IMG/VR virus record: IMGVR_UViG_3300044857_000116
Direction: 5' to 3' (one strand)
Length of the DNA stretch: 18,984 bases
DNA from: a virus
A model generated the notes under the pieces. It ran no database searches. It was not told where the DNA came from and saw only the letters and a list, made by a program, of their open reading frames with translations. Below, piece after piece: positions 1-18,984 of the stretch. The translations under genes and the position numbers were made by a program. Position 1 is the stretch's first letter. Each line of letters starts with the position of its first letter.

Positions 1-173
1 AAGGATAGAGAAGTGTGTGTGTGTGTTGTCTTTCCCCGTCTGTGTTTGTTATTCCTTTGTGTGTCAGTTTTTTTTCGCGTGTGTCGCCTTATTTTTTTTT
101 TGTTTGGTGTTTTGGTGTGTTGTGTGGTATGATTGTGTTGTTGGTTCGGAGTGGTTAATGTTAGGAGATTGAT
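1..173. repeat. Left inverted terminal repeat (ITR), presumed protein-primed replication origin
   Basis: In my hand alignment the reverse complement of 18813-18984 matches 1-173 base for base, except one homopolymer indel (T10 at 92-101 versus A9 on the right). It starts 5'-AAGGATAG and contains (GT)7 at 13-26, T8 at 68-75 and tandem TTTGGTGT x2 at 103-118. Confidence 0.95.
104..133 (+). promoter_or_regulatory. Candidate early promoter inside the left ITR (TTGGTG, 18-nt spacer, TGgTATGAT extended -10)
   Basis: TTGGTG lies at 104-109, TG at 125-126 and TATGAT at 128-133. It points inward, about 40 nt upstream of the first ATG (174). This is a motif reading only. Confidence 0.45.
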
Positions 174-344
174 ATGTTGAGTGAGCAAACGATTCGTGAT
201 TATGCTGAGGAATATATTGAGAATTCGGGTCAGTCTGTTGATGATTTTGATTTGGATGCTGTTATTTCTGTTCTTGATTTTCAAGCTAATACTGTTTTGG
301 GGGTGGATGATATGGATAGTTTTCCTAATCAGGTTTTTTGTTGA
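174..344 (+). CDS. Hypothetical early protein, 56 aa, strongly acidic (DNA-mimic candidate)
   Basis: Hand-translated and absent from the ORF track because it is under 60 aa: MLSEQTIRDYAEEYIENSGQSVDDFDLDAVISVLDFQANTVLGVDDMDSFPNQVFC, stop TGA at 342-344. AGGAG (163-167) sits 6 nt upstream of the ATG. It has 13 D/E against 1 R. It reads as a more plausible protein than the overlapping 181..369 ORF. Confidence 0.6.
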   Translation: MLSEQTIRDYAEEYIENSGQSVDDFDLDAVISVLDFQANTVLGVDDMDSFPNQVFC

Positions 345-371
345 TGCTTTTTGGGGTAATATGAGGTGATT

Positions 372-400
372 TTGGTTTTTTTGAGTCGTTGTGATATGAT
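372..400 (+). promoter_or_regulatory. Candidate early promoter (TTGGTT, 17-nt spacer, TGaTATGAT)
   Basis: It has the same architecture as the ITR promoter candidate: TTGGTT at 372-377, TG at 392-393, TATGAT at 395-400. It lies in the gap upstream of the 442 gene. Confidence 0.45.
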
Positions 401-441
401 GATTCTGTTGGTTGATATTGTAGATAGGTTAGGAGTTAACT

Positions 442-648
442 ATGAAGAGTAAGTTTATGATCGTTGCTGGTGACAAGGTTGTTTACACTTGTAACTGTGA
501 TTTTGTTTTCTATCAAGAGGGCTATGAGTGTGTGTATTTCTTGAATAAGAGTATTGACGAAAAGGGTTCTGTTTTTTCTATCGCTGAGTATTCCGTGAGT
601 GATTTGAATGATTTTGTTATTGTTAAGGAGTTGGGTTCAGTTGCGTAA
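442..648 (+). CDS. Hypothetical early protein, 68 aa
   Basis: ORF-track entry with an ATG 6 nt downstream of AGGAG (431-435). I recognise no family. Confidence 0.65.
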   Translation: MKSKFMIVAGDKVVYTCNCDFVFYQEGYECVYFLNKSIDEKGSVFSIAEYSVSDLNDFVIVKELGSVA

Positions 649-853
649 TCGTGTGAAGATGTTGTGTATATTCTTGTCGGGCGTGTTGTTGTTGGGGATG
701 TCTGCTTGTGGCACTGTTGATTCTAGTGGCAATCTTGAGTCTTATGAGGTGCACTTGCCGGATGGTCGTTATGTGTATTGTGTTCGGGATAGGGGCTTGT
801 CTGATCGTGGCGCTGTGTCTTGTAATTGGCGTGGTACGTTTTCTAAGGATTGA
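641..853 (+). CDS. Putative small secreted lipoprotein (about 70 aa precursor)
   Basis: This is the frame of track ORF 608..853. TTG at 641 is 10 nt downstream of AAGGAG (625-630) and gives MRNRVKMLCIFLSGVLLLGMSAC-GTVDSS..., that is a basic n-region, a hydrophobic core and a lipobox-like MSAC. Alternative starts are GTG 653 and ATG 659. The mature part is about 48 aa with two further Cys. Confidence 0.5.
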   Translation: MRNRVKMLCIFLSGVLLLGMSACGTVDSSGNLESYEVHLPDGRYVYCVRDRGLSDRGAVSCNWRGTFSKD

Positions 854-887
854 TGGTTATGAAAGTTTGCGTTTAGGATTATTCCAT

Positions 888-916
888 TTCAAAGTGCTGT
901 GATATTGTGTTATATT
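888..916 (+). promoter_or_regulatory. Candidate promoter (TTCAAA, 17-nt spacer, TGtTATATT)
   Basis: TTCAAA lies at 888-893, TG at 908-909 and TATATT at 911-916, in the 146-nt gap before the 1000 gene. Confidence 0.4.
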
Positions 917-999
917 TGCATGGGTAAACAGATTAGTGAAGCTGTTCCGCGTTGTGATGTTTTCCCGCGTATTGTTGAGATAGTGGAGGGTAAGTAATC

Positions 1000-1392
1000 A
1001 TGCTTATTAAAGAATTTGAGTCTAAGTCTATGCGCGTTAGGCTGTTTGGTGATACGCGATTTGTTGAAGCGGGGTCGGCTAAGCAAGTCCCTTATTTTGT
1101 TGTTAATGTTACTGACTTGGATTATGTCAAGTATACGTCTGATAGATTTGACGATTTAGATAATGCGTTTATACGATTCAAGGACGAGGTAAGTATTCTG
1201 AAGTATGAGGATAATTTCACATCTTCTAAAAATGTGTATTTTTCTGCACTGGATAATGTTCAGGAAGCTGTGGATGCATGTTTTGTTGATATAATTCGAG
1301 ATGGCAACCATGCAGTGGTTAACACGTCTCTGTTATATAGGGCGATCTCTAAGGCTACTCAAGATGCCATAGATAAGGCGTTCAGCAAATGA
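1000..1392 (+). CDS. Hypothetical early protein, 130 aa
   Basis: ORF-track entry with GGAGG (985-989) 10 nt upstream of the ATG. I recognise no family. Confidence 0.7.
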   Translation: MLIKEFESKSMRVRLFGDTRFVEAGSAKQVPYFVVNVTDLDYVKYTSDRFDDLDNAFIRFKDEVSILKYEDNFTSSKNVYFSALDNVQEAVDACFVDIIRDGNHAVVNTSLLYRAISKATQDAIDKAFSK

Positions 1393-2741: not shown

Positions 2742-3191
2742 ATGGCAGGTAACGAAATTCAGTCAGTGAACGCGGAAACGGGCGAGATTCTCGACGAGCG
2801 CGAGCAGGTCGGCACACATCAGACGATCAGCACGATTCATCCGAAGACGTTTGACGAGCGAGCCAAGGCATATAATGCGCTGAGCAATGCCGCTTCGTTG
2901 GACGATATGGGCGATAAGGTCATTACGATCACGGGCATCATGCAACGGCCCGGAGTCGCCAAGGATCCTCAGTCGGGTGTTGAGCGTGATTGTCTTGATA
3001 CCACGTTGGTCGGCAAGGATGGGGAGGGGTATTTCTCCAAGTCGGGTGGTATCGCCAAGTCCGCTCAGCTGATCGTGGCCATGTTCGGAGGTAATTCCGA
3101 TCACTGGGAGAAGCCCATTAATGTACAGGTTGTAAAAACTATTCTGCCGAACAAGCAGACACTCAAGACCTTGAAGATCGTGATCAAGTAG
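2742..3191 (+). CDS. Putative single-stranded DNA-binding protein (phage SSB-like)
   Basis: ORF-track entry, 149 aa. The call rests on its position in the replication module and on the pattern ..AYNALSNA..LDDMGDKVITITGIM......DP.SG......TTLVGKDGEGYFSKSGGIAKS...IVAMFG.., which resembles small phage SSB families as I remember them. No search was done. Confidence 0.45.
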   Translation: MAGNEIQSVNAETGEILDEREQVGTHQTISTIHPKTFDERAKAYNALSNAASLDDMGDKVITITGIMQRPGVAKDPQSGVERDCLDTTLVGKDGEGYFSKSGGIAKSAQLIVAMFGGNSDHWEKPINVQVVKTILPNKQTLKTLKIVIK

Positions 3192-3246: not shown

Positions 3247-3285
3247 AAGGCCCCTGCCTCCTAGCGCGGGGGCCTTGTTGTTTGT
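3247..3285 (+). terminator. Rho-independent terminator candidate
   Basis: AAGGCCCC (3247-3254) pairs with GGGGCCTT (3269-3276), followed by GTTGTTTGT. Confidence 0.65.
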
Positions 3286-3300: not shown

Positions 3301-4302
3301 GTGGCTAAGAACTTTACCGAGAATTTCATCAAGGGCCTAAGTCCTGAAAAAATAGCGAGAATGCCGAAGTCCGATCTTAAGGAATTGGCAAAAGCCGTGT
3401 CGAAGATGACGGAAACGGTCATCAATTCCGCCATCAAGAACATGGGGAACACGACATACACGGAAGCACCCGTAATCAAACTCACGCCAAAAGAGCGCAT
3501 GTACGCTTCTCGAAAAAGCATTCCCGAGTCTGCCATAACAGTGCCATACGTGCATAGTCAAAAAGGTTTGAGACAGCAGAAGCGTCGCATAGACGCGGCC
3601 AAGGCGAAACAACGCCGTATCGCCAATTATGCTCAGGAGAATGCGAGCAAGCCGAGCGTACGACAGCAACGCTTGAATGAGATGAAAGGCTATACGTCCG
3701 CTAGTGGGGACGTGAGTTCACGTAGATACGGCATTCCCGCCTTGACGAACGCCATGTCTCAGAGAAACGTTCTTTCCGACCCCAAGATCGTCGCCAAGCT
3801 CCCCAAGGCCACGCTTGTCAATGAGATCAGTGACAGGATATCGGATGTCAAGGATATTTCGCCCAGAAAAAGGACGAACAACAAGCCCAAGAATCGTGGC
3901 AAGACCAAAAGCAAGGCACAACGACAGCGCCGACCGATGAGTGAAGAGTCGAGGGCGCGAAACTCGATGAAAGCGCATGGCGGCAAGCAATGGAACAGTC
4001 CTGTCCATGCAACCAAGAGAAAACCATCCTCGCCCATGTTCACAAATAACAGCGACATCAGCTATCGCAAGCTGGTATCCAAGAGCATACGCGAAGTGTT
4101 CGGGAAAGAGTATGCCAGAAAGTTCGATAAGATCAGCGCCCGTAAACAATTCAAGTTATTGAACAATACCGGCTTTCAGAAATTCATCGCACAACACGCG
4201 ATGTATGATTCGTATGAACGTAAGGCGGTGAAGTGGGAGTCGCCCGACGAGCGTGGGACATGGGGGAAGATAGAACAGCGCTATAATGATTACATCGAAT
4301 AG
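3301..4302 (+). CDS. Putative terminal protein (replication primer)
   Basis: 333-aa ORF with a GTG start after a G-rich tract, lying 13 nt upstream of the protein-primed polymerase gene, which is the conserved TP position. It is very basic (KRRIDAAKAKQRRI, KRTNNKPKNRGKTKSKAQRQRRP). I see no sequence similarity to phi29 TP, so the call is positional. Confidence 0.55.
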   Translation: MAKNFTENFIKGLSPEKIARMPKSDLKELAKAVSKMTETVINSAIKNMGNTTYTEAPVIKLTPKERMYASRKSIPESAITVPYVHSQKGLRQQKRRIDAAKAKQRRIANYAQENASKPSVRQQRLNEMKGYTSASGDVSSRRYGIPALTNAMSQRNVLSDPKIVAKLPKATLVNEISDRISDVKDISPRKRTNNKPKNRGKTKSKAQRQRRPMSEESRARNSMKAHGGKQWNSPVHATKRKPSSPMFTNNSDISYRKLVSKSIREVFGKEYARKFDKISARKQFKLLNNTGFQKFIAQHAMYDSYERKAVKWESPDERGTWGKIEQRYNDYIE

Positions 4303-4315: not shown

Positions 4316-5773
4316 TTGATAGTGGTGGCATATGATGGCGGTGATACGATGATCGTCAACGGCAACGCTGTACCGTATTCATTCAAGCGCATGGAATACC
4401 TATCGCTGGATGATGATGTGATAGTGTGGAATGACGGCATTGGTACGGCTATGGGCATGTTCAAGGATACCGTGAAAAACGGGTATCGTGAAGCGGATCG
4501 CGGGGAACGTTCATATTCGATACTGGTGTCCATGCAACGCATATTCTATATGTTGAAACTCAGGCCGATGCCGCGACGGTCGATAACGATACAGTCCGTG
4601 GTCAATATCGTATCGACGGCGAAACCGCGAGAGATCATGGAGACGTTCGGTGGCGGATCGCGTCTCAAAAGCGTGTGGCGTATGGCGGCGGAGTTCGAGC
4701 GTCTCGGTATTCGCGGCGTGACGGCGGGCGCTAGTGCCATATCCATAATTCGCAGGAACATGGGGTATGGAGAGTTCGCCAAGAATTTTCCGTGGGATGA
4801 GGCGTGGCTGTCGGATGTGCGCATGGCGTATCGTGGTGGTATCGTGTGGACTGACGGCACGAACGAGCGGGAGTACGGCGAGGGCGTATCATACGACAAC
4901 AATTCTCTGTATCCGTACTGTCTGACTCACTATCCCATGCCGTACGGCACGCCCGTGCATTATGAGGGTGAATATGAGCATGATGACGGTATGCCGTACC
5001 ATGTCGAGCGCATAACATTCAGGGCCGATCTAAAGGACGGGGGTATTCCGTTTCTTAGTGGCATGTTGTTTCCGTGGTTGCAGGAGGGCGATTACGTTAC
5101 CTCGACCAAAGGTTTCGTGACCATGTGGCTTACCGACATTGACATCATCAGTCTCACGGAGAACTATGACGTGTATATTTTGGAGCATGTCGAGGGATAT
5201 AAATTCGCGGCCAAGATGGGCATGTTTTCCCAGTATGTGTCGCATTGGGCGACGTTGAAAGCGTCCTCGCATGACGCGGAGCGCAAGGTGGCGAAGCTCA
5301 TGATAAACGCTCCGATAGGCAAATTCGGGGCGGTGCCGAGAGACAATAGACTCGATCCGAGTCTTGACGAGGACGGCGAGATACAATGGAATGTCAGGAG
5401 AAACGAACGGCGCAATCCCCTATGCTATCCGCCCGTGGCCATGTGGACGACGGCGTTGGCGCGATCCGTGCTGCTCAAAGCAATGCGAGACAATCGAGAC
5501 AGGCTGATATACGCCGACACTGACTCAGTGGTGCTGATCGGCAAGGAACCTCCCAATGGTATTACCGTGCACCCGACCAAACTCGGTTGCTGGAAGATCG
5601 AGCGTGAATTTACTTCCGCGAGAATTCTCGGATTGAGGAAATATGAGATGCAGACACCGGATGGCGTGCACATGTGTCTGTCGGGTGTTTCACGTGAAAC
5701 ACCGATACCATACGACATGTTTCACAAGGGCGTTCGTCACAACGACGACCGTGGCAATGAGTTTGTGCTATAG
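4316..5773 (+). CDS. Protein-primed family-B DNA polymerase (phi29 gp2-like)
   Basis: Motifs found: AYRGGIVW, SYDNNSLYP (motif A), KLMINAPIGKFG (motif B), LIYADTDS (motif C), LRKYE (KxY). It is colinear with my recollection of phi29 pol (AYRGGFTW..GEGMVFDVNSLYP..KLMLNSLYGKFA..YCDTDS). The start TTG 4316 is uncertain; GTG 4322 or 4325 are possible. Confidence 0.95.
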   Translation: MIVVAYDGGDTMIVNGNAVPYSFKRMEYLSLDDDVIVWNDGIGTAMGMFKDTVKNGYREADRGERSYSILVSMQRIFYMLKLRPMPRRSITIQSVVNIVSTAKPREIMETFGGGSRLKSVWRMAAEFERLGIRGVTAGASAISIIRRNMGYGEFAKNFPWDEAWLSDVRMAYRGGIVWTDGTNEREYGEGVSYDNNSLYPYCLTHYPMPYGTPVHYEGEYEHDDGMPYHVERITFRADLKDGGIPFLSGMLFPWLQEGDYVTSTKGFVTMWLTDIDIISLTENYDVYILEHVEGYKFAAKMGMFSQYVSHWATLKASSHDAERKVAKLMINAPIGKFGAVPRDNRLDPSLDEDGEIQWNVRRNERRNPLCYPPVAMWTTALARSVLLKAMRDNRDRLIYADTDSVVLIGKEPPNGITVHPTKLGCWKIEREFTSARILGLRKYEMQTPDGVHMCLSGVSRETPIPYDMFHKGVRHNDDRGNEFVL

Positions 5774-5900
5774 TTTACCGTGAGCATGGAACTTTCCGAG
5801 ATATGGTCTGCCGGTCACACGTATTAGGTTACGCGGCAGTCCCTTGGCAGTGTGTGTGTATGTTTCGGTCAGTATCCCCAAGTGCTCGCATACAGTAACG

Positions 5901-5928
5901 GTGACGCGCTCCGAGAGGGGCGCGTTAC
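5901..5928 (+). promoter_or_regulatory. Stable hairpin just upstream of the scaffold gene RBS
   Basis: GTGACGCGC (5901-5909) pairs with GCGCGTTAC (5920-5928): 9 bp including one G-U, with a 10-nt loop. No T-tract follows, so it is not an obvious terminator. Confidence 0.4.
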
Positions 5929-5949
5929 GATTATCAGAGAGGTATCGAC

Positions 5950-6306
5950 ATGGCGGACAACACTGAAAACATCGAGGACGAGGACGAGACCCCCAAGGAT
6001 GACGAGAACACGGGCGAGGATGAACAGCAGGAGGATGTCGAACCGGAGCGGAAAGAGCAGGAGTCAGACGAGGAGTCCGATCTCAGGCGGCAGGTCGATT
6101 CGCTGACCACTGATCTACAGGCTTGCCGCTCGACCATCGAGGAACTCGTCAAGACGGTTCAGGCCATGCAGGACAAGGCCGCCGACGACACTCTCGGCGG
6201 AGCGGACATTGAGGATTCGGAGGAACTCGGAGGAGACGACGGCGACGACGACCCCGATGGTGTAAACTTGACATTACAGGACATCATGACTCGAAAGGAT
6301 GATTAG
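5950..6306 (+). CDS. Scaffolding protein (phi29 gp7 position)
   Basis: 118 aa, extremely acidic (EDEDETPKDDENTGEDEQQEDVEPE...), with a helical heptad-like middle section. It lies immediately upstream of the capsid gene. Confidence 0.7.
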   Translation: MADNTENIEDEDETPKDDENTGEDEQQEDVEPERKEQESDEESDLRRQVDSLTTDLQACRSTIEELVKTVQAMQDKAADDTLGGADIEDSEELGGDDGDDDPDGVNLTLQDIMTRKDD

Positions 6307-6310
6307 TCTC

Positions 6311-8062: not shown

Positions 8063-8085
8063 CACGATGGAGTGAGGTATAATCG

Positions 8086-8122
8086 AGCGAGACGGGCATG
8101 ATGTCCGTCTCGCTTTACTTTT
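8086..8122 (+). terminator. Rho-independent terminator candidate between the capsid and tail genes
   Basis: AGCGAGACGG (8086-8095) pairs with CCGTCTCGCT (8105-8114), followed by TTTACTTTT. Confidence 0.7.
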
Positions 8123-12056: not shown

Positions 12057-12579
12057 CGTAACCAATGATCCACAGAGAATGTGGCCATATTTCAGGGGAG
12101 AGAACTCCCCTACCGTTTCCAGCGTGCCGTTCACGTTCCGCGACGGGATTACCACGATGGAGAAAATGGAGGAACTCGCGCACATGTTTCGCCATCTGTG
12201 TGAGGTGTGGACTCAGTATCAGGAAAACATGAAAGACTGGGCGGACGAGACTCAGAAAGACCTTGCGGACGAGCAAGAGGCTTATGAAAAGTCCGTGAAC
12301 TCGCGGCTTGACGATATGTTGTCCATTATTCAAGGGCTGTATAAGGGCGTATTCGAATACAATCCCACCACGGGGGCTTATGAGAACACTCAAAAGGTTC
12401 AGCGCGACATGTTCAGGAATCTCTCTGTGTTCGGTGCGCGTGTGGATCAGATGGCTACACTGACCTGCGAGGAGGCGGCCAAGCATACCGCTCAGGAGAC
12501 GTCCGTGATAGGCAATGTCAGCATATTCGGCAACACGGCTCCAAGGGTTACGCCCGTTTCAGGAGGGGAACAGTCATGA
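12046..12579 (+). CDS. Hypothetical structural-module protein, 177 aa (coiled-coil-like middle section)
   Basis: ORF-track entry with an ATG after AGGAGG. It lies between the collar and tail-appendage genes. I recognise no family. Confidence 0.7.
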   Translation: MVSDVTNDPQRMWPYFRGENSPTVSSVPFTFRDGITTMEKMEELAHMFRHLCEVWTQYQENMKDWADETQKDLADEQEAYEKSVNSRLDDMLSIIQGLYKGVFEYNPTTGAYENTQKVQRDMFRNLSVFGARVDQMATLTCEEAAKHTAQETSVIGNVSIFGNTAPRVTPVSGGEQS

Positions 12580-12728
12580 AGAGCACGCCGTTTTACCATC
12601 TGCCCTTATATGAGGATGCCGACGCGCAGGACCTCAGAGACGGGTATAATAATGCCATGATCCTCATGGATCAGAAACTTCATCAGATCGACAACATCAT
12701 ACAAGACATGAAGAACGGAGTCAAGTAA
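12576..12728 (+). CDS. Small protein, 50 aa, carrying a tail-fibre N-terminal anchor-like motif
   Basis: Hand-translated: MKSTPFYHLPLYEDADAQDLRDGYNNAMILMDQKLHQIDNIIQDMKNGVK, stop TAA at 12726-12728. AGGAGG (12561-12566) is 9 nt upstream, and the ATG overlaps the upstream TGA. It aligns with the N-terminus of the next gene (NYGLDLYGDKDPADLRDGHNANMRSIDGVIKEQ). Confidence 0.55.
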   Translation: MKSTPFYHLPLYEDADAQDLRDGYNNAMILMDQKLHQIDNIIQDMKNGVK

Positions 12729-12729
12729 C

Positions 12730-14403
12730 ATGGGAGCAGTATACAGCAAGACGGATAACTACGGACTCGACCTCTATGGCGATAAAGATCCCGCCGACCT
12801 CAGAGACGGGCATAACGCCAACATGCGTTCCATAGACGGCGTTATCAAGGAGCAATCAGACTCGATTTCCGAGGTACGGAAGACAGCGGAAGCTGCGGCT
12901 CCCCAAAACACCACATACAACAAAACTGAAATAGACGATTTTTTAACAAAAAAGGCAGATTCTGAGGGAACAGTTTTATCACTGAGTCTAAAGGCTGACA
13001 AGAAAACAATAGAAAAAACGGGCAATGTCGTGGCCCTAGGCATCGACAATTCAGGGGAAAACGATATATCCTCTAGCGTAAACGAATTGATACAAAGCGG
13101 CGAATATATGGGATTATACTTTCCTCAGGGTACGTATTTACTTTCTGATAAAATATCCGTCAATATCAAAACAGGAAGTTCATTTTCCATATTTGCATCA
13201 CCATCTGCAAGATTTATCGCACAGACTGACAATATGCCCGAAATGTTGTATGTAGAAGCGATAAACTGGACGGGAACGCGATTCGTGCTAGACGGCGGTA
13301 TTTGGGATGCTAATAGAAAAGCGTTGCGATGTATAAAAGTAAAAACAAACTATGACGCAATCATGAGAAATATGCAATTATTAAACGCCATAGATACGGC
13401 GCTAGACAATTCAGAAGCCACTTGCGTAATGGCTGACAATATAGACATCTGGGGCGGTAAATGGAATGATGATACAAGCAATAAGACACGAACGGGCATC
13501 GACAGCCATCATGATTCACAGTATAATCACATTAGAGTATTTTTCTGTGATATCGGGATAAAACATAGGGGGTATTCACAATTTTCTGACATATATATAT
13601 ATGGAGGTACTAATCAGTCAAACAGGATTACTGTTGGATTTAATTGCATGCAGTCTTCCAGCGAACTTCAAATACATGATATATATATGGATACTCTACA
13701 AACCTATTTTTCGGCTGATTCTGGAGTAGATCACTGCAATTATTTTGGGAATGGTCTATTTGCATATCTTAATAATACGGAAATATTGGAGGGTTCAAAC
13801 TGCACGATCTTCAAAACAGGCCCAACTACGCTACTTAATGTGTCTGGGATGAGGATAAGGATACCTATCCATTATATGTTTTCTGATTTTTACTTTCTCA
13901 ACCCATTTAGTATCAATTTACTAAACAGCAGAGAGATTAATTTTTCCAATATTCTGGACATTAATCACCTATTGAATTCAAACAATATGGCAACATATCA
14001 CAATTGGACGAAAATATCAGACGGTACTCCAATAACAAGCGGACAATGTATTAAAATATGCTGCATTCCAGCATCTAATCAAATACATAAAATTAAAATC
14101 ACAAACTCATATCACTCCAGAGAATTTGAAATAATGGCAGACAAAAACTCAGGTGGCAGAGTTGTTTCAGAAAGGGCATTATTTAATGGTGACTCGATAG
14201 AGTTTTATTCCAAGATTTCCTCAGATAACTCTACTAGAGAAATTTATCTCTCAAACGACGGTACAAGCACGTTTGCAGATTCAACTTTCTTCATCGAATT
14301 TACCGAAAGTGCAGTTTTTAATCAAGGGGCGTACTCTGATAAAGTAGGGTCAGTCAATGTTCCTACAGCAAAAACATCGGACATGACAGTAATGAGTAAA
14401 TAA
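12730..14403 (+). CDS. Tail appendage / fibre, probable receptor-binding or depolymerase protein with beta-helix domain (phi29 gp12 position)
   Basis: 557 aa. It has an N-terminal anchor motif. The segment GENDISSSVNELIQSGEYMGLYFPQGTYLLSDKISV resembles the start of pectate-lyase-superfamily beta-helix domains. It occupies the gp12 position between the collar and the tail lysin. Confidence 0.75.
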   Translation: MGAVYSKTDNYGLDLYGDKDPADLRDGHNANMRSIDGVIKEQSDSISEVRKTAEAAAPQNTTYNKTEIDDFLTKKADSEGTVLSLSLKADKKTIEKTGNVVALGIDNSGENDISSSVNELIQSGEYMGLYFPQGTYLLSDKISVNIKTGSSFSIFASPSARFIAQTDNMPEMLYVEAINWTGTRFVLDGGIWDANRKALRCIKVKTNYDAIMRNMQLLNAIDTALDNSEATCVMADNIDIWGGKWNDDTSNKTRTGIDSHHDSQYNHIRVFFCDIGIKHRGYSQFSDIYIYGGTNQSNRITVGFNCMQSSSELQIHDIYMDTLQTYFSADSGVDHCNYFGNGLFAYLNNTEILEGSNCTIFKTGPTTLLNVSGMRIRIPIHYMFSDFYFLNPFSINLLNSREINFSNILDINHLLNSNNMATYHNWTKISDGTPITSGQCIKICCIPASNQIHKIKITNSYHSREFEIMADKNSGGRVVSERALFNGDSIEFYSKISSDNSTREIYLSNDGTSTFADSTFFIEFTESAVFNQGAYSDKVGSVNVPTAKTSDMTVMSK

Positions 14404-15695
14404 TGTCAAATCAAAGCATGTATGCCATGTACGTTATAGGAAAGGTAGAAAGCAATCACAATTGGGCTTCCGTGAACACCACTGATCCCATAACGTTCGG
14501 GATGATGCAATGGTTCGGCACGAGAGCCTATGGTCTTCTGGTGCTATGCTCTCAGAGGGATGCAGAGGGGTGGGCGGCATTCAAGGCCGCCGCCCCCGCA
14601 CTCGGCGCGCACGTCGAGAACAACGACGTGAATTGGCCCACATATTACACGAACGCGGCAGAGGAGAACGCTTGGAGACAGTGGGCCACTCGTGATCTCA
14701 ACCACGCGGCACAACAGGAGCAATGGGAGACGGATTATGTCACGTATTCCAAACAGTGCGACAGTATCGGTATTCCATCAGAAAACATGCAGGTACGCAT
14801 ACTGTTTATGACAGCATACCATCAGGGGCCAAAATACGCTCTGAGAGTGATACGATCCGTAGGCGTTATGAGCACGTTGGATAGATTGCATGACGGATTG
14901 TTGGCGGACGGAGTATTGGGAAGATACCGCAACCGCTACAATACGGCATACGATCTGCTGAAAACATGGGATGGACAGAGCGCACCACCCGACTTCGGGC
15001 AGTCAGGCGGAGGAGAAACTCAACCCGACCACGGCGGAGACACCGCCCCCTCGGTACAGCCGACACCCGACAAGCCGGTCATGGTTACCGTGTTCGGGAA
15101 TGATCTCGTATACAACGAGAATGGCACTAAAAAGCGTCTATACAAAACGTCCGCACAATCATGGCAGGGCGGCACGATAACAGGGCAGACCATAGCAGGC
15201 GGAGGAACAGGCGGCGGACAGAGCACAGGAGGAGGCGACAGTAGCGGCAACGCTTCTGGGGATGCGGCCAAAGTGCTTAAATGGATCAGTGACCGCATGG
15301 GAAAATTCAACTATTCACAAGGGCCGGGCCGACTCAACCCCGACGCGACAGGATACACGGACTGTTCGGGATTGATATGGTCTGCATACCATTTCGCCAT
15401 AGGCAAAGACATAGGGACATGGACGGGAACGGAACAGTCCCTAGGCACCGAAGTTGCCAACTCGTCCACAAGCTCCGTTGCAGACGCTATAGCCAAGGTC
15501 AAGGCGGCCGATATTCTCGTCATAGACTGGGCACGTAATGGCGTGACTGGGGACTATGACCATGAGGAAATATTCACCGGAGATGGAAGCGGCCACCTAT
15601 ATTCACACGGCGGCCCCGGCAAGGGGCCATCAGAACGACAGTTCACCGATCAAGCCCCCGCAATGGTACGCTGGAAGATACGGAGACACTTATAG
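14403..15695 (+). CDS. Tail-associated peptidoglycan hydrolase (gp13 position): lysozyme-like N-domain, Gly-rich linker, NlpC/P60-type C-domain
   Basis: The N-terminus has GKVESNHNW...FGMMQWF (compare recalled gp13 GNMQSEST..GLVQWT). The linker is GGGTGGGQSTGGGDSSG. The C-terminus has GYTDCSGLIWSAY...HEEIF...SHGG, a Cys/His peptidase pattern. The ATG overlaps the upstream TAA (TAATG). Confidence 0.8.
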   Translation: MSNQSMYAMYVIGKVESNHNWASVNTTDPITFGMMQWFGTRAYGLLVLCSQRDAEGWAAFKAAAPALGAHVENNDVNWPTYYTNAAEENAWRQWATRDLNHAAQQEQWETDYVTYSKQCDSIGIPSENMQVRILFMTAYHQGPKYALRVIRSVGVMSTLDRLHDGLLADGVLGRYRNRYNTAYDLLKTWDGQSAPPDFGQSGGGETQPDHGGDTAPSVQPTPDKPVMVTVFGNDLVYNENGTKKRLYKTSAQSWQGGTITGQTIAGGGTGGGQSTGGGDSSGNASGDAAKVLKWISDRMGKFNYSQGPGRLNPDATGYTDCSGLIWSAYHFAIGKDIGTWTGTEQSLGTEVANSSTSSVADAIAKVKAADILVIDWARNGVTGDYDHEEIFTGDGSGHLYSHGGPGKGPSERQFTDQAPAMVRWKIRRHL

Positions 15696-15706: not shown

Positions 15707-16777
15707 ATGGCGGCAAAAGGCAAGAACGGAATGCTCACCGAGGCGGACTATTACGACGGGCATGACATTCTCTCGGTAAACGCTATGTGGAATTTCATAC
15801 TGGGCGCTAGAGGACTGGGAAAGACATACTGGGCGCTCCGGTTCGTCATACGCAAATACATCAATAACGGAGAACAATTCATCTACCTCAGGCGCACCGA
15901 GGAAGAGGTGAAAAAGGTTCGCACGAAACTGTTCGACGACATGAAAACAGTGTTTCCCGCGTACGCTTTCCGAGTGGAGGGCATGGATCTACAGATATGC
16001 CGCAATCCCAAGGCATCCAAGAAAGAGATTGTTTGGGAGAACATGGGAGCGATCATGGCCCTCAGCACATCAGGCGGCCTCAAATCAATACCATACCCGC
16101 ATGTCAACTGGATACTGTTCGAAGAGATATTCCCCAACAAGGGCGGCCAAGGATATCTGCCTAATGAGACGGAGCAGTTTCAGGAACTCTACAGTACCAT
16201 AGATCGCTGGCATGATAGAGTCAGGCTCATAGCACTATCCAACGCAGTATCATTGTCTAACCCGTATTTCGCCATCTATGGGTTGGAAGTGGAAAATCAG
16301 CGGACAACAGTACGCAAATACGCCAACGGATATATCGCCGTGGAAATGGCCGACTACAAAGGCTTCAGCTCCAAGGTCAAAGAGACCAGGTTCGGACAGT
16401 TCATATCTAATCAGGAATACGCCAAGTATGCTATGGACAATCAATTCAAGGATGCTGGCGATAACATGCTACGCCCCCTGAGTCGATCCGACGATTCGTA
16501 CAGTTTCACTATTCAGTCAGAAATGGGCGATTTCCGCATATGGTCACATCAGGACATGGTCAGCATGGAATCATATTACACACTATCCGCAAAACATCCA
16601 AAAAACGAACGATGGCGAACCACGATGGCAACGAACGTCACCGAAGACATGCCGCTAATCTCAAAGCGCGACGATATACTTAAACGACTCACCGCCGCAT
16701 ATCGTGGCGGACGATTATTCTTCGAGAGTGCTACGATGAAGAGCATGTTCATTAACATGTTCGGCTCGATGATGTAA
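15707..16777 (+). CDS. DNA encapsidation (packaging) ATPase (phi29 gp16-like)
   Basis: WNFILGARGLGKTYWALRFVIRKYINNGEQFIYLRR parallels recalled gp16 LNFVIGARGIGKSYAMKVYPINRFIKYGEQFIYVRR (Walker A). WILFEE is the Walker B motif. LIALSNAVSLSNPYF parallels CICLSNAVSVVNPYF. Confidence 0.93.
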   Translation: MAAKGKNGMLTEADYYDGHDILSVNAMWNFILGARGLGKTYWALRFVIRKYINNGEQFIYLRRTEEEVKKVRTKLFDDMKTVFPAYAFRVEGMDLQICRNPKASKKEIVWENMGAIMALSTSGGLKSIPYPHVNWILFEEIFPNKGGQGYLPNETEQFQELYSTIDRWHDRVRLIALSNAVSLSNPYFAIYGLEVENQRTTVRKYANGYIAVEMADYKGFSSKVKETRFGQFISNQEYAKYAMDNQFKDAGDNMLRPLSRSDDSYSFTIQSEMGDFRIWSHQDMVSMESYYTLSAKHPKNERWRTTMATNVTEDMPLISKRDDILKRLTAAYRGGRLFFESATMKSMFINMFGSMM

Positions 16778-16785: not shown

Positions 16786-17250
16786 ATGGTACAGGCAACA
16801 ATCAGAATAGGAGACATCATGTCATTCATAGGACTCAGCGAAGCGGCACGCCAATGGGCAATAGCATTGGTGGCAATATTCATCATCATGGATGTGATAA
16901 GCGGTTTCATCAAAGGAGCCGCGCAACACAATCTCAGTTCGTCGGCAATCAGGCAAGGAATATGGCATAAGGCCGCGTATATTATTCTCATGGCTCTCGC
17001 TGTTCTCATAGACCTCGCTCAAAATCACCTCGATCTAGGATTTAATAAACAGATACTCATACCGCTCTGCATTATGATAATCCTATCAGAGGCAGTATCC
17101 ATAGTGGAGAACGTCATAGCCATATTCCCCGAGCTTAAAGATCAGCCAATACTTAAGCTATTCAACACAAGCGCCGCCGATGACACCATCGTAACACGAT
17201 ACGTCGAAGCAACCAAAAACAACAAAAAGGAAGATGACAGCAATGCCTGA
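16786..17250 (+). CDS. Holin (phage_holin_4 / phi29 gp14-like class)
   Basis: 154 aa with three hydrophobic segments. MDVISGFIKGA....LSSSAIRQGIWHKA and SEAVSIVENV..IFPEL fit the family pattern as I recall it. The C-tail is charged. A second in-frame ATG at 16819 has its own AGGAG. Confidence 0.75.
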   Translation: MVQATIRIGDIMSFIGLSEAARQWAIALVAIFIIMDVISGFIKGAAQHNLSSSAIRQGIWHKAAYIILMALAVLIDLAQNHLDLGFNKQILIPLCIMIILSEAVSIVENVIAIFPELKDQPILKLFNTSAADDTIVTRYVEATKNNKKEDDSNA

Positions 17251-18043
17251 CATACAAACATTCGTCAACAGAATGATATACTGGTGCGCCACCGCGTCAC
17301 TAGGATATGACCAAAACCACAGATGGGACATTCGAGACGGAGGAGCAGCAGACTGTTCGTCACTCGTGATATTCGCCGCACGCGAAGCAGGATTCAATAC
17401 AGGCGACGCAAGCTATACCGGAAACATGCGCGAAGCATTCACTAAAAACGGTTGGACAGTATTACCACCAAACACGCCCAAACAGGCCGGAGACATCCTA
17501 CTCAACGACGTACACCACGTAGCAGTATACCTTGGCAACAATAAAATCGCACAGGCATCCATAGACGAACGAGGCAGAGCATCAGGAGGACGAGAGGGCG
17601 ACCAAAGCAACGAAACAAACATCAGGAACTACTACGACTACCCATGGAACTGCGTACTAAGATACAACGGCATAAACACCACACCCGCACCATCAGACAC
17701 TACGAGGATACATGTAGACGTAGACGGCTATTTTGGCCACCAGCTCGCCAAGGCCCTGCAAACCATTCAAGGAACAAACCCTGACGGCATCATAAGCGGA
17801 CAGTATCGAAACAAGTGGACAACACCAATATCCGCAGTACAATTCGGCACCGGAGGAAGCGACCTCATCGCAAGCATGAGCGCCGAACTAGGCACAACAA
17901 ACGACCCCAGATACATAGGGCCGACATGGGTAGGAAGAATACTCGTCCGCTACAACGGCACAACCGGAAACGGCGTAATCGACAGACCATCAGACGCAAT
18001 AAGAAAAATGCAGGAAAGAATCAACGCAACCGGCAAATGGTGA
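17234..18043 (+). CDS. Endolysin: N-terminal cysteine-peptidase/amidase-type domain plus C-terminal peptidoglycan-binding-like domain
   Basis: GGAADCSSLVIFAAREAGF ... GDILLNDVHHVAVYLG ... GGREGDQSNE resembles the Amidase_5 / NlpC-P60-like phage lysin pattern. VDGYFGHQLAKALQTIQGTNPDGIISG resembles PG_binding_1. It overlaps the holin stop. ATG 17243 has the better SD spacing and may be the true start. Confidence 0.8.
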   Translation: MTAMPDIQTFVNRMIYWCATASLGYDQNHRWDIRDGGAADCSSLVIFAAREAGFNTGDASYTGNMREAFTKNGWTVLPPNTPKQAGDILLNDVHHVAVYLGNNKIAQASIDERGRASGGREGDQSNETNIRNYYDYPWNCVLRYNGINTTPAPSDTTRIHVDVDGYFGHQLAKALQTIQGTNPDGIISGQYRNKWTTPISAVQFGTGGSDLIASMSAELGTTNDPRYIGPTWVGRILVRYNGTTGNGVIDRPSDAIRKMQERINATGKW

Positions 18044-18055
18044 CAAGAAAACACA

Positions 18056-18084
18056 CGGCCCCTCGAAAGAGGGGCTGTTTTTTT
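18056..18084. terminator. Bidirectional rho-independent terminator between the convergent + and - transcription units
   Basis: CGGCCCCTC (18056-18064), a GAAA loop, then GAGGGGCTG (18069-18077), followed by T7 on the + strand. On the - strand the hairpin is followed by GTGTGTTTTC. Confidence 0.8.
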
Positions 18085-18088
18085 ATGG

Positions 18089-18214
18089 CTAAAACAGAGA
18101 CCATACAGAATCAGTAATATGGTCATAAGAAAATGGAGCATTTACATCCCCAACAACAATGCACAAAATTCCATCTACAATATAAGGAAAACTAGTACGA
18201 TCAGAGAAAATCAT
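18089..18214 (-). CDS. Hypothetical small protein, 41 aa
   Basis: Hand-translated from the - strand: MIFSDRTSFPYIVDGILCIVVGDVNAPFSYDHITDSVWSLF, with the stop complement at 18089-18091. Its SD AGGAG is the 3' end of the conserved 15-mer shared with the ITRs (the - strand reads AGGAGGTGATGGTATG), about 8 nt upstream of the ATG. Confidence 0.4.
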   Translation of the reverse strand: MIFSDRTSFPYIVDGILCIVVGDVNAPFSYDHITDSVWSLF

Positions 18215-18222
18215 ACCATCAC

Positions 18223-18237
18223 CTCCTAACATTAACC
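18223..18237 (-). promoter_or_regulatory. Third, internal copy of the ITR-proximal 15-mer GGTTAATGTTAGGAG (SD-containing element)
   Basis: The exact 15-mer also occurs at 153-167 (+) and 18819-18833 (-). Flanking bases are partly similar (GTGTTGTTGGTT in the ITR versus GGTGTTGGTTTGGTTTGG here). Confidence 0.6.
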
Positions 18238-18262
18238 AATCCTTTCCAAACCAAACCAACAC

Positions 18263-18811
18263 CTATTGCACCGAACGCATAGGCACAAGAAGCACTGTTG
18301 TCTTCAGACAACTAACAGTGAACCTCAACGCCTTAAAATTGGGACTCTGTTTGTTGACGCTCATCACCATCGGTACGGGTTTTTTCATGCCCTTGTCATC
18401 AAGGATTTCACATACTGTGATAAGAAGTTCGGGATTTACCACAATGAGATTCGAAAATCCATTCAAGGATATCCTACTATCATCACCATCGCCATAGTTC
18501 GATTCATCGAACAGTCTGTCCAAGTTAGGATAGCTACTTTTGGCTTCATGCCAAGGCATTATAGACCAATCAATGTCAATATTTGACCTCGCATTTCTAA
18601 CAAAAAACTCCAAGTCCTCAATCGTAAGATACTGATTATCCTTGATTCCGTCGAGCTTCTGTTCAATCTTCACAGCGCTAAATCTATCGGTAGCATAGAT
18701 AAAACCATTACAATACCATACATTCACAAGGATGTCATCAGGCATATGCCTACATTTCTTCTCATTCTTTAAAACCTTAACAATACCACGAATATTATTC
18801 TTCTTCATCAT
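18263..18811 (-). CDS. Right-end early protein, 182 aa, with DNA polymerase III beta-clamp-like motifs (tentative)
   Basis: This is the frame of track ORF 18263..18853. The start ATG at 18811 (MMKKNNIRG...) lies 7 nt after the ITR AGGAG. Motifs in clamp order: YATDRFSAV (compare ATDGHRLAV), SSYPNLDRLF (compare GRFPDYRRVLP), VVNPELLITVCEIL, and C-terminal TTVLLVPMRSVQ (compare AYVVMPMRL). Confidence 0.75.
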   Translation of the reverse strand: MMKKNNIRGIVKVLKNEKKCRHMPDDILVNVWYCNGFIYATDRFSAVKIEQKLDGIKDNQYLTIEDLEFFVRNARSNIDIDWSIMPWHEAKSSYPNLDRLFDESNYGDGDDSRISLNGFSNLIVVNPELLITVCEILDDKGMKKPVPMVMSVNKQSPNFKALRFTVSCLKTTVLLVPMRSVQ

Positions 18812-18812
18812 A

Positions 18813-18984
18813 ATCAATCTCCTAACATTAACCACTCCGAACCAACAACACAATCATACCACACAACACACCAAAACACCAAACAAAAAAAAATAAGGCG
18901 ACACACGCGAAAAAAAACTGACACACAAAGGAATAACAAACACAGACGGGGAAAGACAACACACACACACACTTCTCTATCCTT
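18813..18984. repeat. Right inverted terminal repeat (ITR)
   Basis: This is the reverse complement of 1-173, with one fewer base in the homopolymer (A9 at 18885-18893). Confidence 0.95.
18853..18882 (-). promoter_or_regulatory. Candidate early promoter inside the right ITR (mirror copy of 104-133)
   Basis: The complement of TATGAT lies at 18853-18858 and the complement of TTGGTG at 18877-18882. The sequence is identical to the left copy. Confidence 0.45.

Follow-up and report, generated by a model that had tools for sequence, protein, structure and literature searches.

A probably complete phi29-like podovirus genome from a new genus-level lineage of Bifidobacterium phages, with a candidate packaging RNA between the polymerase and scaffold genes

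The window, which is the whole 18,984-bp stretch of DNA analysed here, is very probably the complete linear double-stranded DNA genome of a lytic, phi29-like podovirus that belongs to a Bifidobacterium-infecting clade, represents a new genus-level lineage, and follows the mechanism proposed below. Two inverted terminal repeats (ITRs) flank complete phi29-type modules for replication, morphogenesis, packaging, and lysis, and the genome size falls inside the 17.6–19.8 kb range of isolated relatives. Together with a gene order matching that of Bifidobacterium phage BadAargau2, these observations agree with the first-pass annotation, which had described a complete phi29/Cp-1-like protein-primed podovirus. 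The genome is ordinary in itself; the more interesting features are a polymerase that probably lacks exonuclease activity across the clade and a structured RNA encoded between the polymerase (pol) and scaffold genes.

That the ends are inverted repeats, as had been claimed, can be read directly from the window. Bases 1–100 are 100% complementary to bases 18885–18984, and bases 93–173 are 100% complementary to bases 18813–18893. The left ITR (1–173, + strand; 173 nt) and right ITR (18813–18984, − strand; 172 nt) are complementary from the terminal base and differ only in the length of a T run (10 T on the left, 9 T on the right), being otherwise perfect. Each arm starts at base 1 of its own end and extends inward as far as the SD sequence and initiation codon of the nearest inward-directed gene (ATG 174 at the left end and ATG 18811 at the right). 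The left arm holds an extended -10 promoter-like site (TGGTATGAT, 125–133) and the 5′ UTR and ribosome binding site (RBS) of the first gene, and the right arm carries an identical promoter-like site (18853–18861) and an identical RBS serving the gene that starts at 18811, a start codon that most likely replaces the TTG at 18853 proposed earlier. Matches to the extended -10 motif exceed expectation in the window (10 versus 2.85). The presence of the same inward early promoter and RBS in both ITRs suggests that early transcription would proceed from both ends.

An inverted repeat this long located exactly at both termini cannot have arisen by chance. It is also highly improbable that the ITRs are an assembly artefact or that the window is an incomplete or permuted form of a circular or terminally redundant molecule. 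The source is a metagenome assembly, and an artefact would be compatible with the one-base homopolymer difference between the ITR copies and with a separately produced Logan assembly of the same phage (SRR16378841, 18,730 nt), which matches the window at 100% identity across the 15,627 nt compared and, judged from its length, would cover positions 147–18876, stopping within both ITRs and leaving out the outer 146 and 108 nt. However, assembly from k-mers would be expected to stop within an inverted repeat, and this accounts for the shorter contig; in addition, both arms stop at the same ITR position. Moreover, ITRs of 90–236 nt are usual among isolated relatives, the lower value being given in the source for Microbacterium phage Curie (90 bp; PMC11320940), and the ITR of BadAargau2 (227 nt) likewise abuts the first start codon at each end. 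The full set of genes is present, in an order that follows the isolates throughout the genome, and linear ends are implied by a protein-primed polymerase. Collectively, these observations argue for genuine linear termini. The 5′ ends would be protein-linked.

Gene order in the window is collinear with that of the Bifidobacterium phages BadAargau2/BadAztec1, BD811P1-3, and BP1. BadAargau2 has 14 of the 26 genes in common with the window at 27–55% amino-acid identity, with a nucleotide identity of about 8%; the major capsid protein (MCP) is 44–46% and pol 41% identical to those of BadAargau2/BadAztec1. A megablast search against 50,697 phage records returned zero matches, and near-identity to a described phage is thus absent, the nearest genomes being those with about 8% nucleotide identity. 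These amino-acid and nucleotide identities therefore place the window as a new genus-level lineage within a known clade, to which the genus Badaztecvirus, BD811P1-3, BP1, and no fewer than 80 IMG/VR contigs belong. The novelty proposed in the first-pass annotation accordingly holds for the lineage, while its degree was overstated because the clade has already been described.

Members of Badaztecvirus (BadAargau2 and BadAztec1/2/4, from honeybee-gut B. asteroides) share with the window an identical gene order from ITR to ITR, ITRs that at either end abut the start codon of the first gene, a short polymerase (470–485 aa) devoid of Exo motifs, and a GC content of about 49%. They differ in a nucleotide identity far under the 70% genus threshold, in left early genes that are mostly unshared, in a different appendage gene, and in an endolysin that shares only its N-terminal domain; the ITR of BadAargau2 is unrelated in sequence and longer (227 nt versus 173 here). 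Phages BD811P1-3 and BP1 (human gut, sewage) resemble the window in module order, short polymerase, spacer RNA architecture, and appendage N-terminus, whereas protein identities are 32–59%.

Features in common with phi29 (Bacillus, Salasmaviridae) include a family-B polymerase with TPR1/TPR2, a single-stranded DNA-binding protein (SSB), MCP, connector, lower collar, tail knob, gp16 ATPase, and a bidirectional terminator preceding the right early genes. However, only five proteins are detectable between the two phages by tblastn (27–35% identity), and phi29 differs in its ITR (6 bp versus 173 nt), its leftward left early genes, a pRNA gene at the left end, an ATPase gene that is the last of the late genes, and the possession of a head fibre and the p4 regulator. 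In the window, as had been recognized at the outset, the replication genes share a strand with the late genes, the minus strand carries only two short genes at the right end, the ATPase gene sits between those for the tail lysin and holin, and a head-fibre gene is absent. Streptococcus phage Cp-1 (Madridviridae) has an ITR of 236 bp and, by description, shares with the window a long ITR, co-oriented replication and late genes, and a few leftward right-end genes. In contrast to the window, Cp-1 infects a low-GC Firmicute, and it is not among the closest matches for any protein; Streptococcus phages appear only low in the MCP and polymerase match lists.

Early genes of unassigned function occupy both ends. 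Those on the left (174–2393, + strand) lie at 174–344, 442–648, 608–853, 1000–1392, 1389–1550, 1537–1716, 1688–1864, and 1845–2393; the gene at 608–853 encodes a lipoprotein-like signal (PHROG 3641) and that at 1845–2393 is conserved among Bifidobacterium phages (30–34% identity). Right-end early genes (18089–18811, − strand) comprise 18811→18263 (182 aa) and probably 18214→18089 (41 aa), the latter with a 5′ UTR that repeats the UTR inside the ITR. A terminator-like bidirectional hairpin (18055–18078) separates them from the convergent late genes. Just upstream of the SSB gene, a clade-conserved 94-aa protein that is basic and then acidic (2397–2681, + strand) may play a p6-like role, as suggested by the position of the DNA-binding protein p6 in phi29. 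The phi29-type SSB itself (2742–3191, + strand) was identified by PF17427 (Pfam E = 6e-10) and PHROG 6243, and is followed by a terminator-like GC hairpin with a T-rich tail (3247–3276, + strand).

Directly upstream of pol, a basic, mostly helical 333-aa protein (3301–4302, + strand) is the candidate terminal protein (TP), a role that its position suggests. Homology searches linked it to none of the known TPs; similarity to phi29 TP was not detected in a profile comparison (probability 0.3%) or in a PDB sequence search, and a fold search with its predicted model (pLDDT 58) gave no match. In an alignment of the candidate, T290 is invariant and Y302 near-invariant, and both are therefore candidate priming residues.

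The protein-primed family-B DNA polymerase (4316–5773, + strand; DNA_pol_B_2, E = 2e-33) has intact motifs A, B, and C, and alignment with relatives suggests that its true start is ATG 4349, yielding 474 aa. Residues 130–443 align without large gaps to phi29 183–500, including the TPR1 and TPR2 insertions (PDB sequence match), and the AlphaFold model (pLDDT 91) superposes on phi29 polymerase with a TM of 0.83–0.85 (Foldseek, E = 1e-41), bearing out the earlier assignment to the phi29 type. The phi29 polymerase has an active 3′-5′ exonuclease (PMC11476376). Here, in contrast, the N-terminal exonuclease-like domain is shortened, the ExoI, ExoII, and ExoIII alignment columns are empty of catalytic residues, and zero acidic residues are invariant within residues 1–135 of nine clade members. 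The polymerase therefore probably cannot proofread, and the alignments and model suggest that this is probably a clade-wide property. In the proposed life cycle, the polymerase would prime on the 333-aa protein, acting as TP, at 3′-TTCC ends and replicate by strand displacement; its exonuclease domain would be a structural remnant, and replication would not be proofread.

Profile matches substantiated most of the gene set listed in the first-pass annotation (polymerase, MCP with an Ig-like domain, gp9-, gp10-, and gp11-like proteins, ATPase, holin, and endolysin), whereas the TP, scaffold, appendage, and tail lysin calls are weaker. The scaffold candidate (5950–6306; this and all following virion and lysis genes on the + strand) is a 118-aa protein proposed from its position and coiled-coil character, and is 28% identical to the syntenic BadAargau2 ORF. 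It is followed by a phi29-type MCP with a C-terminal Big_2 Ig-like domain (6299–8062; Phi29_MCP E = 1.5e-95, Big_2 E = 1e-5) and, directly 3′ of the capsid gene, a 14-bp terminator-like hairpin (8085–8115). The tail and connector genes encode a gp9-like tail knob (8134–10314; PHROG 2248, E = 3e-80), a gp10-like connector (portal) with the basic N-terminus MSRRQDKLNR (10325–11254; E = 1.5e-48), and a gp11-like lower collar/adaptor Ad4 (11247–12056; PHROG 3225, E = 3.5e-30). Two conserved virion-module ORFs of unassigned role (12046–12728) follow, at 12046–12579 (177 aa) and 12576–12728 (50 aa). The appendage, a putative receptor-binding protein (12730–14403), is 59% identical to a BD811P2 protein over its N-terminal 56 aa; the remainder has low GC (about 36%) and no phage homolog apart from a sub-threshold pectate-lyase-like match (E = 3.5e-4). 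A candidate tail-associated lysin (14403–15695) shares 55% identity with BadAargau2 gp06, and its C-terminal part gives a marginal NlpC/P60 match (PDB 6b8c, E = 0.009). The gp16-type packaging ATPase (15707–16777; Podovirus_Gp16, E = 1.5e-52), holin (16786–17250; Holin_4_1, E = 3e-16), and endolysin with NlpC/P60 and ELLD domains (17234–18043; E = 2e-22) complete the late region.

An actinobacterial host had been guessed from the sequence, and homology to phages and prophage-like genes supports and narrows this to Bifidobacterium. The closest phages for MCP, pol, the TP candidate, lysin, and ATPase infect this genus, and the best full-length relatives of the endolysin are in Bifidobacterium phage PMBT6 and Bifidobacterium genomes. 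Another gut actinobacterium (Collinsella or other Coriobacteriia) or a low-GC Gram-positive is an unlikely host. Collinsella metagenome-assembled genomes hold endolysin relatives (49–51% identity), but the top full-length endolysin relatives are mostly in Bifidobacterium genomes; Eggerthella and Hungatella phages are among the polymerase matches, but among isolated phages the best matches to each conserved gene are Bifidobacterium phages. The receptor-binding portion of the appendage gene, at 36% GC, has a weak match to a Lactobacillus phage protein. The overall GC content of 49.2% (0.50–0.57 in the core, in line with the 52–57% or so first reported) is below that of most bifidobacteria, yet the B. 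asteroides phage BadAztec2 is close to it (48.7%; PMC11476376).

The 176-nt spacer between pol and scaffold begins at an extended -10 promoter-like element (TGCTATAGT, 5766–5774, + strand) that overlaps the pol stop codon and is kept in 13 of 14 subfamily representatives. Late genes would be transcribed rightward from this element, and the first ~160 nt of the transcript are predicted to fold (z = -3.6 for the window spacer) into a pRNA-like RNA. Domain I (5780–5889, + strand; 110 nt) is closed by helix A (5780–5787/5882–5889) and contains a C stem (5808–5813/5834–5839), a 5′ bulge GUCACA (5814–5819), an E stem (5820–5823/5830–5833) with loop UUAGGU (5824–5829), and a D region GUGUG (5850–5854) that is complementary to the bulge and lies in a weakly structured GU-rich stretch with no clear hairpin. 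Domain II (5895–5936, + strand) forms a stable GC hairpin, capped by a GAGA loop, that lacks a U-tract and ends 14 nt before the scaffold start codon.

A pol-scaffold spacer is present in every examined relative with a locus reaching past pol (176–234 nt; n = 10 measured), and domain I is 110–115 nt in 10 of 10 examined. Badaztecvirus spacers (~180 nt) share the promoter overlapping the stop codon and carry the hairpin CGUAUUARGUUACG; those of BD811P1-3 and BP1 differ in length (227–230 nt) and E loop (UGAGAAU). The C/bulge/E hairpin occurs at nt 35–48 in 56 of 58 distinct sequences, compared with 12.7% of shuffles. In two subfamilies among the relatives, pairing holds in 99% of cells, with double changes at 22 of 43 pairs; slid controls give 30–43%. 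Complementarity between the bulge and D region, which co-varies across subfamilies, sums to 51, versus 39.1 ± 2.6 in shuffled sequences, with 0 of 5000 shuffles reaching 51.

Applied to phi29 pRNA, the descriptor behind the hairpin count recovers the C/CE/E arm at nt 36–66, compared with nt 35–66 for the arm in the window, and both arms consist of an outer stem, a 5′ bulge, a 4-bp stem, and a 6-nt loop (UUGAGU in phi29). Likewise, domain I of phi29 pRNA (117 nt) is closed by a terminal helix, its bulge pairs as AACC:GGUU, where here the complementary segment lies 10–15 nt after the arm, and a short linker leads to a domain II hairpin. In contrast to phi29 pRNA, the window RNA is encoded between pol and scaffold and read rightward, has no clear D hairpin, and lacks a U-tract in domain II. 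Rfam models gave no pRNA match in the window, and covariance models built from relatives matched one bridging lineage (L009, E = 7e-5) but neither the window spacer nor phi29 pRNA.

By analogy with phi29, we consider this RNA likely to be a pRNA-like packaging RNA whose gene occupies a new position. Since domain II lacks a U-tract, the RNA may instead be no more than the late operon's 5′ leader (promoter, structured leader, and terminator-like hairpin) acting in attenuation, processive antitermination (put-like), mRNA stabilisation, or an early-to-late transcription switch, a reading that we regard as doubtful but worth weighing. The element sits precisely where early genes give way to late ones, neither Rfam nor the relatives' models tie it to pRNA, and antitermination would aid passage through the strong terminator-like hairpin after the MCP gene. 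The scaffold RBS comes within about 15 nt after the 3′ hairpin in the window, the Badaztec phages, L008, L009, and L010, a distance that leaves no space for a separate late promoter, and the spacer RNA is therefore co-transcribed with the late genes; BD811P2, BP1, and L012 carry a true terminator with a U-tract and then a separate TATAAT. However, a closed 110–115-nt domain with a C/bulge/E arm at the phi29 pRNA position would be unexpected in a leader, and co-varying complementarity of a bulge to a loop 10–15 nt downstream is a hallmark of the pRNA CE/D interaction. Furthermore, the genome encodes a full-length phi29-type gp16 ATPase, the phi29 gp16 motor requires pRNA (PMC5066667), and no second candidate packaging RNA was found in the genome. 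A packaging RNA would most likely bridge the connector and gp16 ATPase during packaging, as in phi29, and, if this is true, a packaging-RNA gene resides between pol and scaffold and is read with the late genes. Leader and packaging-RNA roles are not mutually exclusive.

The window is the complete genome of a phi29-like podovirus, and the phage is almost certainly protein-primed. The inverted repeats that the first-pass annotation had reported at both ends are borne out: bases 1-100 pair perfectly with 18885-18984 and bases 93-173 with 18813-18893, and reading both ends reveals one continuous inverted terminal repeat (ITR) whose left arm (173 nt) differs from its right arm (172 nt) solely by one T in a homopolymer. 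Each arm starts at base 1 of its end and extends as far as the first inward-facing gene, up to its RBS (GGAGATTGAT) and start codon. The same phage is present in a separate assembly (Logan run SRR16378841) as a contig of 18,730 nt, with 100% identity across the 15,627 nt that were compared; judged from its length, both ends of this contig would fall inside the ITRs, which supports real linear ends. A relative with 89% identity, found through the polymerase cluster, is present in SRR15194129. The genome encodes 26 plausible genes (coding density ~95%), and a tRNA search of the window identified none. GC content averages 49.2%, with 0.50-0.57 in the core and lower values in the left kilobase (~0.39) and around 13.0-14.5 kb (~0.36).

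Screening against Pfam and PHROGs assigned nine genes unambiguously: a phi29-type SSB (2742-3191), a protein-primed PolB (4316-5773; PF03175, E 2e-33), a Phi29_MCP capsid protein with a Big_2 domain (6299-8062; PF25622, E 1.5e-95), the gp9 tail knob (PHROG 2248, E 3e-80), the gp10 connector (PF05352, E 1.5e-48), the gp11/Ad4 lower collar (PHROG 3225, E 3.5e-30), the gp16 ATPase (PF05894, E 1.5e-52), a holin, and an NlpC/P60+ELLD endolysin. The remainder of the gene set proposed in the first-pass annotation stands less firmly. The scaffold is a candidate based on position and coiled-coil character, the appendage has a pectate-lyase-like match below threshold, the tail lysin has a marginal NlpC/P60 match and 55% identity to the syntenic protein of Bifidobacterium phage BadAargau2, and the terminal protein (TP) is placed by position. 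The phi29-like group, taken here as the Salasmaviridae, Guelinviridae, and Madridviridae together with the genera Anjalivirus, Badaztecvirus, and Dybvigvirus, is characterized by a small linear dsDNA genome of about 15-27 kb with ITRs, a phi29-type PolB with TPR1 and TPR2, a TP gene adjoining the polymerase gene whose product is linked covalently to the 5' ends, and a phi29-type structural and packaging set. The window, at 18,984 bp with a 172/173-nt ITR from base 1 at both ends, carries such a polymerase (PF03175, alignment, and Foldseek) and all of the capsid protein, connector, lower collar, tail knob, and gp16 ATPase. The ITRs, gene set, collinearity with relatives, and Logan assembly support the proposal of a complete linear protein-primed genome. 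The differences from phi29 that had been listed (co-directional replication and late genes, only two right-end genes on the - strand, the ATPase between tail lysin and holin, and no head-fibre gene) are correct against the annotated phi29 genome.

Two genes carry features of their own. In the appendage gene, the C-terminal three quarters (12900-14403) form a low-GC island of ~36%, compared to 50-55% in flanking genes. No phage homologue of this part was detected, and the match to the appendage protein of Bifidobacterium phage BD811P2 covers the first 56 aa only. This part looks as if a receptor-binding module had recently been exchanged for one from a low-GC donor. An early ORF (608-853, 81 aa) encodes a lipoprotein-like signal peptide and lipobox (LLLGMSAC) and matches PHROG 3641 (E 1.5e-11); a superinfection-exclusion or membrane protein is a possible role for its product.

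The first-pass annotation had made novelty conditional on the lack of near-identity to a described phage, and megablast against 50,697 phage records identified no near-identical phage. Exact-protein look-ups with the MCP and the JGI-called polymerase returned no record, and a scan of IMG/VR with MCP peptides returned no match. The best tblastn matches (44-46% for the MCP and 41% for the polymerase) were to BadAargau2 and BadAztec1/2/4, members of the genus Badaztecvirus that infect the honeybee-gut bacterium Bifidobacterium asteroides. These were followed by BD811P1-3 from Bifidobacterium dentium and BP1 from B. pseudocatenulatum, and then by actinophages: those of Arthrobacter and Curtobacterium for both proteins, and those of Microbacterium in the counts only. 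Of these two queries, only the polymerase matched phi29 itself. The annotated genomes of BadAargau2, BadAztec1, BD811P2, and BP1 share the gene order of the window from end to end, and the 227-nt ITR of BadAargau2 also stops at the first start codon on both sides. BadAargau2 encodes homologues of 14 of the 26 window proteins (27-55% identity), whereas only five are detectable in phi29 (27-35% identity). Genome-wide nucleotide identity by sensitive blastn was ~8% to BadAargau2 and BD811P2 and 0.2% to phi29. Since the ICTV genus criterion calls for 70% or more genome-wide nucleotide identity, the ~8% identity to BadAargau2, together with the lack of a megablast match, places the window well outside Badaztecvirus, which itself carries no family assignment. 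Comparison of sequences therefore identifies the window as a new genus-level member of a known clade of Bifidobacterium phages, of which an IMG/VR scan recovered at least 80 related contigs, mostly 16.6-18.9 kb in length.

The host is most likely a Bifidobacterium, as indicated by homology to Bifidobacterium phages and by relatives of the endolysin in Bifidobacterium genomes. A single-sequence scan of genome contigs with the endolysin returned no match; a profile scan found relatives. The best relatives of the endolysin are in Bifidobacterium phage PMBT6 (48%) and, as full-length genes, in Bifidobacterium genomes (47-52%), with those in Collinsella MAGs only slightly more distant. The genome adds one genus-level lineage to the phi29-like Bifidobacterium phages, a small and growing group of relevance to gut and bee-gut ecology. 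With the clade already known, the genome attracts moderate interest in its own right; the clade-wide loss of the proofreading site and the pRNA-like gene described below are more worth following up.

The polymerase is clearly of the phi29 type. Motifs A (DNNSLYP), B (KLMINAPIGKFG), and C (YADTDS) can be read in its sequence, and residues 130-443 align continuously with phi29 residues 183-500, TPR1 and TPR2 included. An AlphaFold model (pLDDT 91.4; 93-96 in the N-terminal domain) superimposed on phi29 polymerase structures (Foldseek; PDB 2ex3/2pyj) over ~565 columns, with E 1e-41 and TM 0.83-0.85. The N-terminal domain is ~50 residues shorter than that of phi29. Proofreading (DEDD) PolB enzymes are recognized by the catalytic residues of ExoI (DxE), ExoII (Nx2-3F/YD), and ExoIII (Yx3D). 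In alignments with phi29 and 60 canonical relatives, ExoI DxE, ExoII NxxFD, and ExoIII YxxxD were absent from the window polymerase and the ExoIII segment was deleted, so that the enzyme falls outside the proofreading PolB while still keeping the exonuclease-domain fold. Across nine polymerases from the short-polymerase clade (464-486 aa), residues 1-135 contain no invariant Asp or Glu. Because a DEDD exonuclease needs its acidic catalytic residues, this suggests that the enzyme does not proofread and that the polymerase of the whole clade is probably a natural enzyme without proofreading, with the exonuclease domain plausibly persisting as a structural module for TP binding and strand displacement. 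The exonuclease-domain region spans window positions 4316-4720, and relatives showing the loss include polymerases P0002-P0006 and loci L001, L006, and L007.

No description of a polymerase lacking the Exo site in this clade was found in the literature searched. An Exo-dead phi29-type polymerase would be informative about how low fidelity is tolerated by small dsDNA phages, and its strand displacement could make it useful in practice; if the loss is real, the clade would be a natural experiment in which a dsDNA phage genome is replicated without proofreading. Dozens of distinct related contigs of 17-18.9 kb (L033-L091) come from one IMG sample (3300045988), indicating high microdiversity. Speculatively, this would fit a polymerase without proofreading.

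The only TP candidate in the genome is, by its position, the 333-aa ORF directly upstream of the polymerase gene (3301-4302). The product is basic and mostly helical, the ORF is kept in every clade member, and a profile search recovered 515 unannotated homologues, many on 17-19 kb contigs. It matched nothing in Pfam or PHROGs, showed no similarity to the phi29 TP by hhalign or a PDB profile search, and yielded no fold match by Foldseek with an AlphaFold model built from 37 homologues (pLDDT 58). In alignments of 10 and 37 sequences, T290 is invariant and Y302 near-invariant within the C-terminal helical region, making both candidate priming residues. By analogy with the phi29 mechanism, the 5'-AAGG at the termini would permit synthesis to begin opposite the second template T and then slide back by one base.

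Between the polymerase and scaffold genes lies a non-coding spacer (5774-5949, 176 nt in the window; 5766-5949 with the promoter element that overlaps the polymerase stop codon) that was present in every examined relative with a locus extending past the polymerase (syntenic spacers L001, L004-L012, and L015-L092) and that measured 176-234 nt in ten of these. The window spacer folds with z = -3.6. In 10/10 sequences examined, a co-varying terminal helix (GAGCA/UGCUC, GAGCG/CGCUC, GAGAC/GUCUC, GCGGG/CCCGC, and AGCGUC/GACGCU) encloses 110-115 nt. RNAalifold identified 45 pairs in two subfamilies of relatives. A count on 43 of these found 99% of cells paired, compared to 30-43% in slid controls, with 22/43 pairs changed on both sides. 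The resulting topology is a helix A/B rod, a junction, a C/E arm and a D hairpin, a return, a linker, and a 3' hairpin. Domains I and II of phi29-type prohead RNA (pRNA) come in the same order of rod, junction arms, linker, and 3' hairpin (PMC5066667). When MAFFT and RNAalifold were applied across all RNA subfamilies, only the E hairpin and the 3' hairpin were recovered, since the interior misaligns.

Two covariance models, R1 and R2, for which two or three subfamilies of relatives supplied the sequences, reached the bridging lineage L009 (E 7e-5), which has the CGUAUUAGGUUACG hairpin in common with the window; in L035 and L041 they matched the 3' hairpin only, and they matched neither domain I of the window nor phi29 pRNA. 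As the models failed to show homology, we instead used a descriptor search with shuffle controls, in which an arm was defined as an outer stem, a 4-9-nt 5' bulge, a 4-5-bp stem, and a 6-7-nt loop. Of 58 distinct sequences, 56 have such an arm at nt 35-48, versus 12.7% of shuffles, with the sequence of its outer stem fully changed from lineage to lineage. In the window, the arm CUGCCG[GUCACA]CGUA(UUAGGU)UACG CGGCAG occupies nt 35-66 (5808-5839). The same descriptor applied to phi29 pRNA as a control identified the C helix, CE bulge, and E stem-loop at nt 36-66 (UGGG[GAUUAAACC]CUGA(UUGAGU)UCAG CCCA), and the phi29 E-loop sequence UUGAGU also occurs in one IMG/VR lineage.

A complement of the bulge lies 5-15 nt 3' of the arm in 7/11 representatives. 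The pairing is CACAC:GUGUG in the window, where GUGUG lies in the D region, and GGCAAA:UUUGCC, GCCAC:GUGGC, CACCAC:GUGGUG, AUCAG:CUGAU, or UGGCA:UGCCA in other lineages. Over the 11 representatives, the summed run length of complementarity was 51, compared to 39.1 +/- 2.6 in shuffles, and 0/5000 shuffles reached 51. The CE/D kissing interaction of phi29 pRNA (AACC:GGUU) occurs at a similar offset; here, the pairing may be inter- or intramolecular. The spacer RNA thus has co-varying complementary CE/D loops. Against the pRNA layout of a ~117-nt domain I with helix A and C/CE-bulge/E and D arms, a linker, and a domain II hairpin, the window RNA comprises a domain I of 110 nt (5780-5889), the arm at nt 35-66, and domain II at 5895-5936. 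The D arm is weak, as the D element of the window is a GU-rich stretch with no clean hairpin. This stretch (5849-5864, AGTGTGTGTGTATGTT) nearly repeats the (GT)n of the ITRs (12-27 and 18958-18973), a likeness that was not seen in BadAargau2 and is probably a low-complexity coincidence.

Upstream, a likely promoter element of the extended -10 form TGNTATRRT (5766-5774) overlaps the polymerase stop codon and is kept as TGnTATAAT or TATAGT in 13/14 lineage representatives, among which the flanking proteins are only ~35-40% identical. Domain II ends 14 nt 5' of the scaffold start codon and is without a U-tract, so that the RNA is at least initially the leader of the late transcript. A purely regulatory leader is worth weighing, as a possible if somewhat doubtful reading. 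That domain II runs so close to the scaffold start codon without a U-tract is compatible with it, as are the failure of the relatives' covariance models to match the window or phi29 and the outcome of an Rfam cmscan of the whole window (E <= 5), which detected no pRNA and only a chance snoRNA match (E 0.86). The Rfam miss is weak evidence, however, because known pRNAs share only ~12% sequence (PMC5066667). The position of the C/CE-bulge/E arm and the co-varying bulge/D pairing match phi29 pRNA and argue against a leader alone. We slightly favor the view that the spacer RNA is a pRNA. The phi29 connector and gp16 both work with pRNA, and the window encodes a connector with a basic N-terminus (MSRRQDKLNR) and a full-length phi29-type gp16 ATPase, lending this view supporting inference.

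The pRNA, which is bound to proheads and needed for packaging driven by gp16, is known from textbooks as a peculiarity of the phi29 motor and is widely used in RNA nanotechnology. In the literature searched, no pRNA was recognized outside of Bacillus phi29-like phages, and a 2024 review regards it as confined to phi29 and its relatives among the Bacillus phages (PMC11476376). The combined reading, in which 5774-5949 would encode a clade-wide pRNA at the head of the late operon, with its promoter in the last codons of the polymerase gene, and the polymerase would lack proofreading, is evenly balanced in our estimation. Should both parts hold, packaging that depends on a pRNA either predates the phi29-like phages or is widespread among them. 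An RNA of equivalent structure in a clade of actinobacterial phages would supply many new natural pRNA sequences with co-varying kissing loops, and a pRNA in a second system would open the way to testing where the RNA component came from and whether it is necessary.

The extended -10 motif has 10 matches in the window (2.85 +/- 1.77 expected), and its non-coding sites likely mark promoters. Besides 5766-5774, these lie at 125-133 inside the left ITR, 18853-18861 inside the right ITR, and 392-400 before ORF 442. With one promoter per ITR, identical early transcripts would run inward from both ends. The ITR 5' UTR and RBS (141-167) has a third copy, 85% identical over 27 nt, before a 41-aa ORF (18214->18089, -). 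The possibility that the ITR promoter recurs a third time at 18210-18249 was considered and rejected, as this is a repeated 5' UTR/RBS and TGGTATGAT spans the start codon of the 41-aa ORF; the mechanically called ORF 18262->18089 (-) is probably mis-started. Terminator-like hairpins were identified after the SSB gene (3247-3276), between the convergent late and right-end genes (18055-18078), and directly 3' of the capsid gene (8085-8115), the last being a GC-rich 14-bp hairpin with a T-rich tail that overlaps the more upstream start called mechanically for the tail-knob ORF. This hairpin may act as an attenuator that raises capsid mRNA relative to downstream genes.
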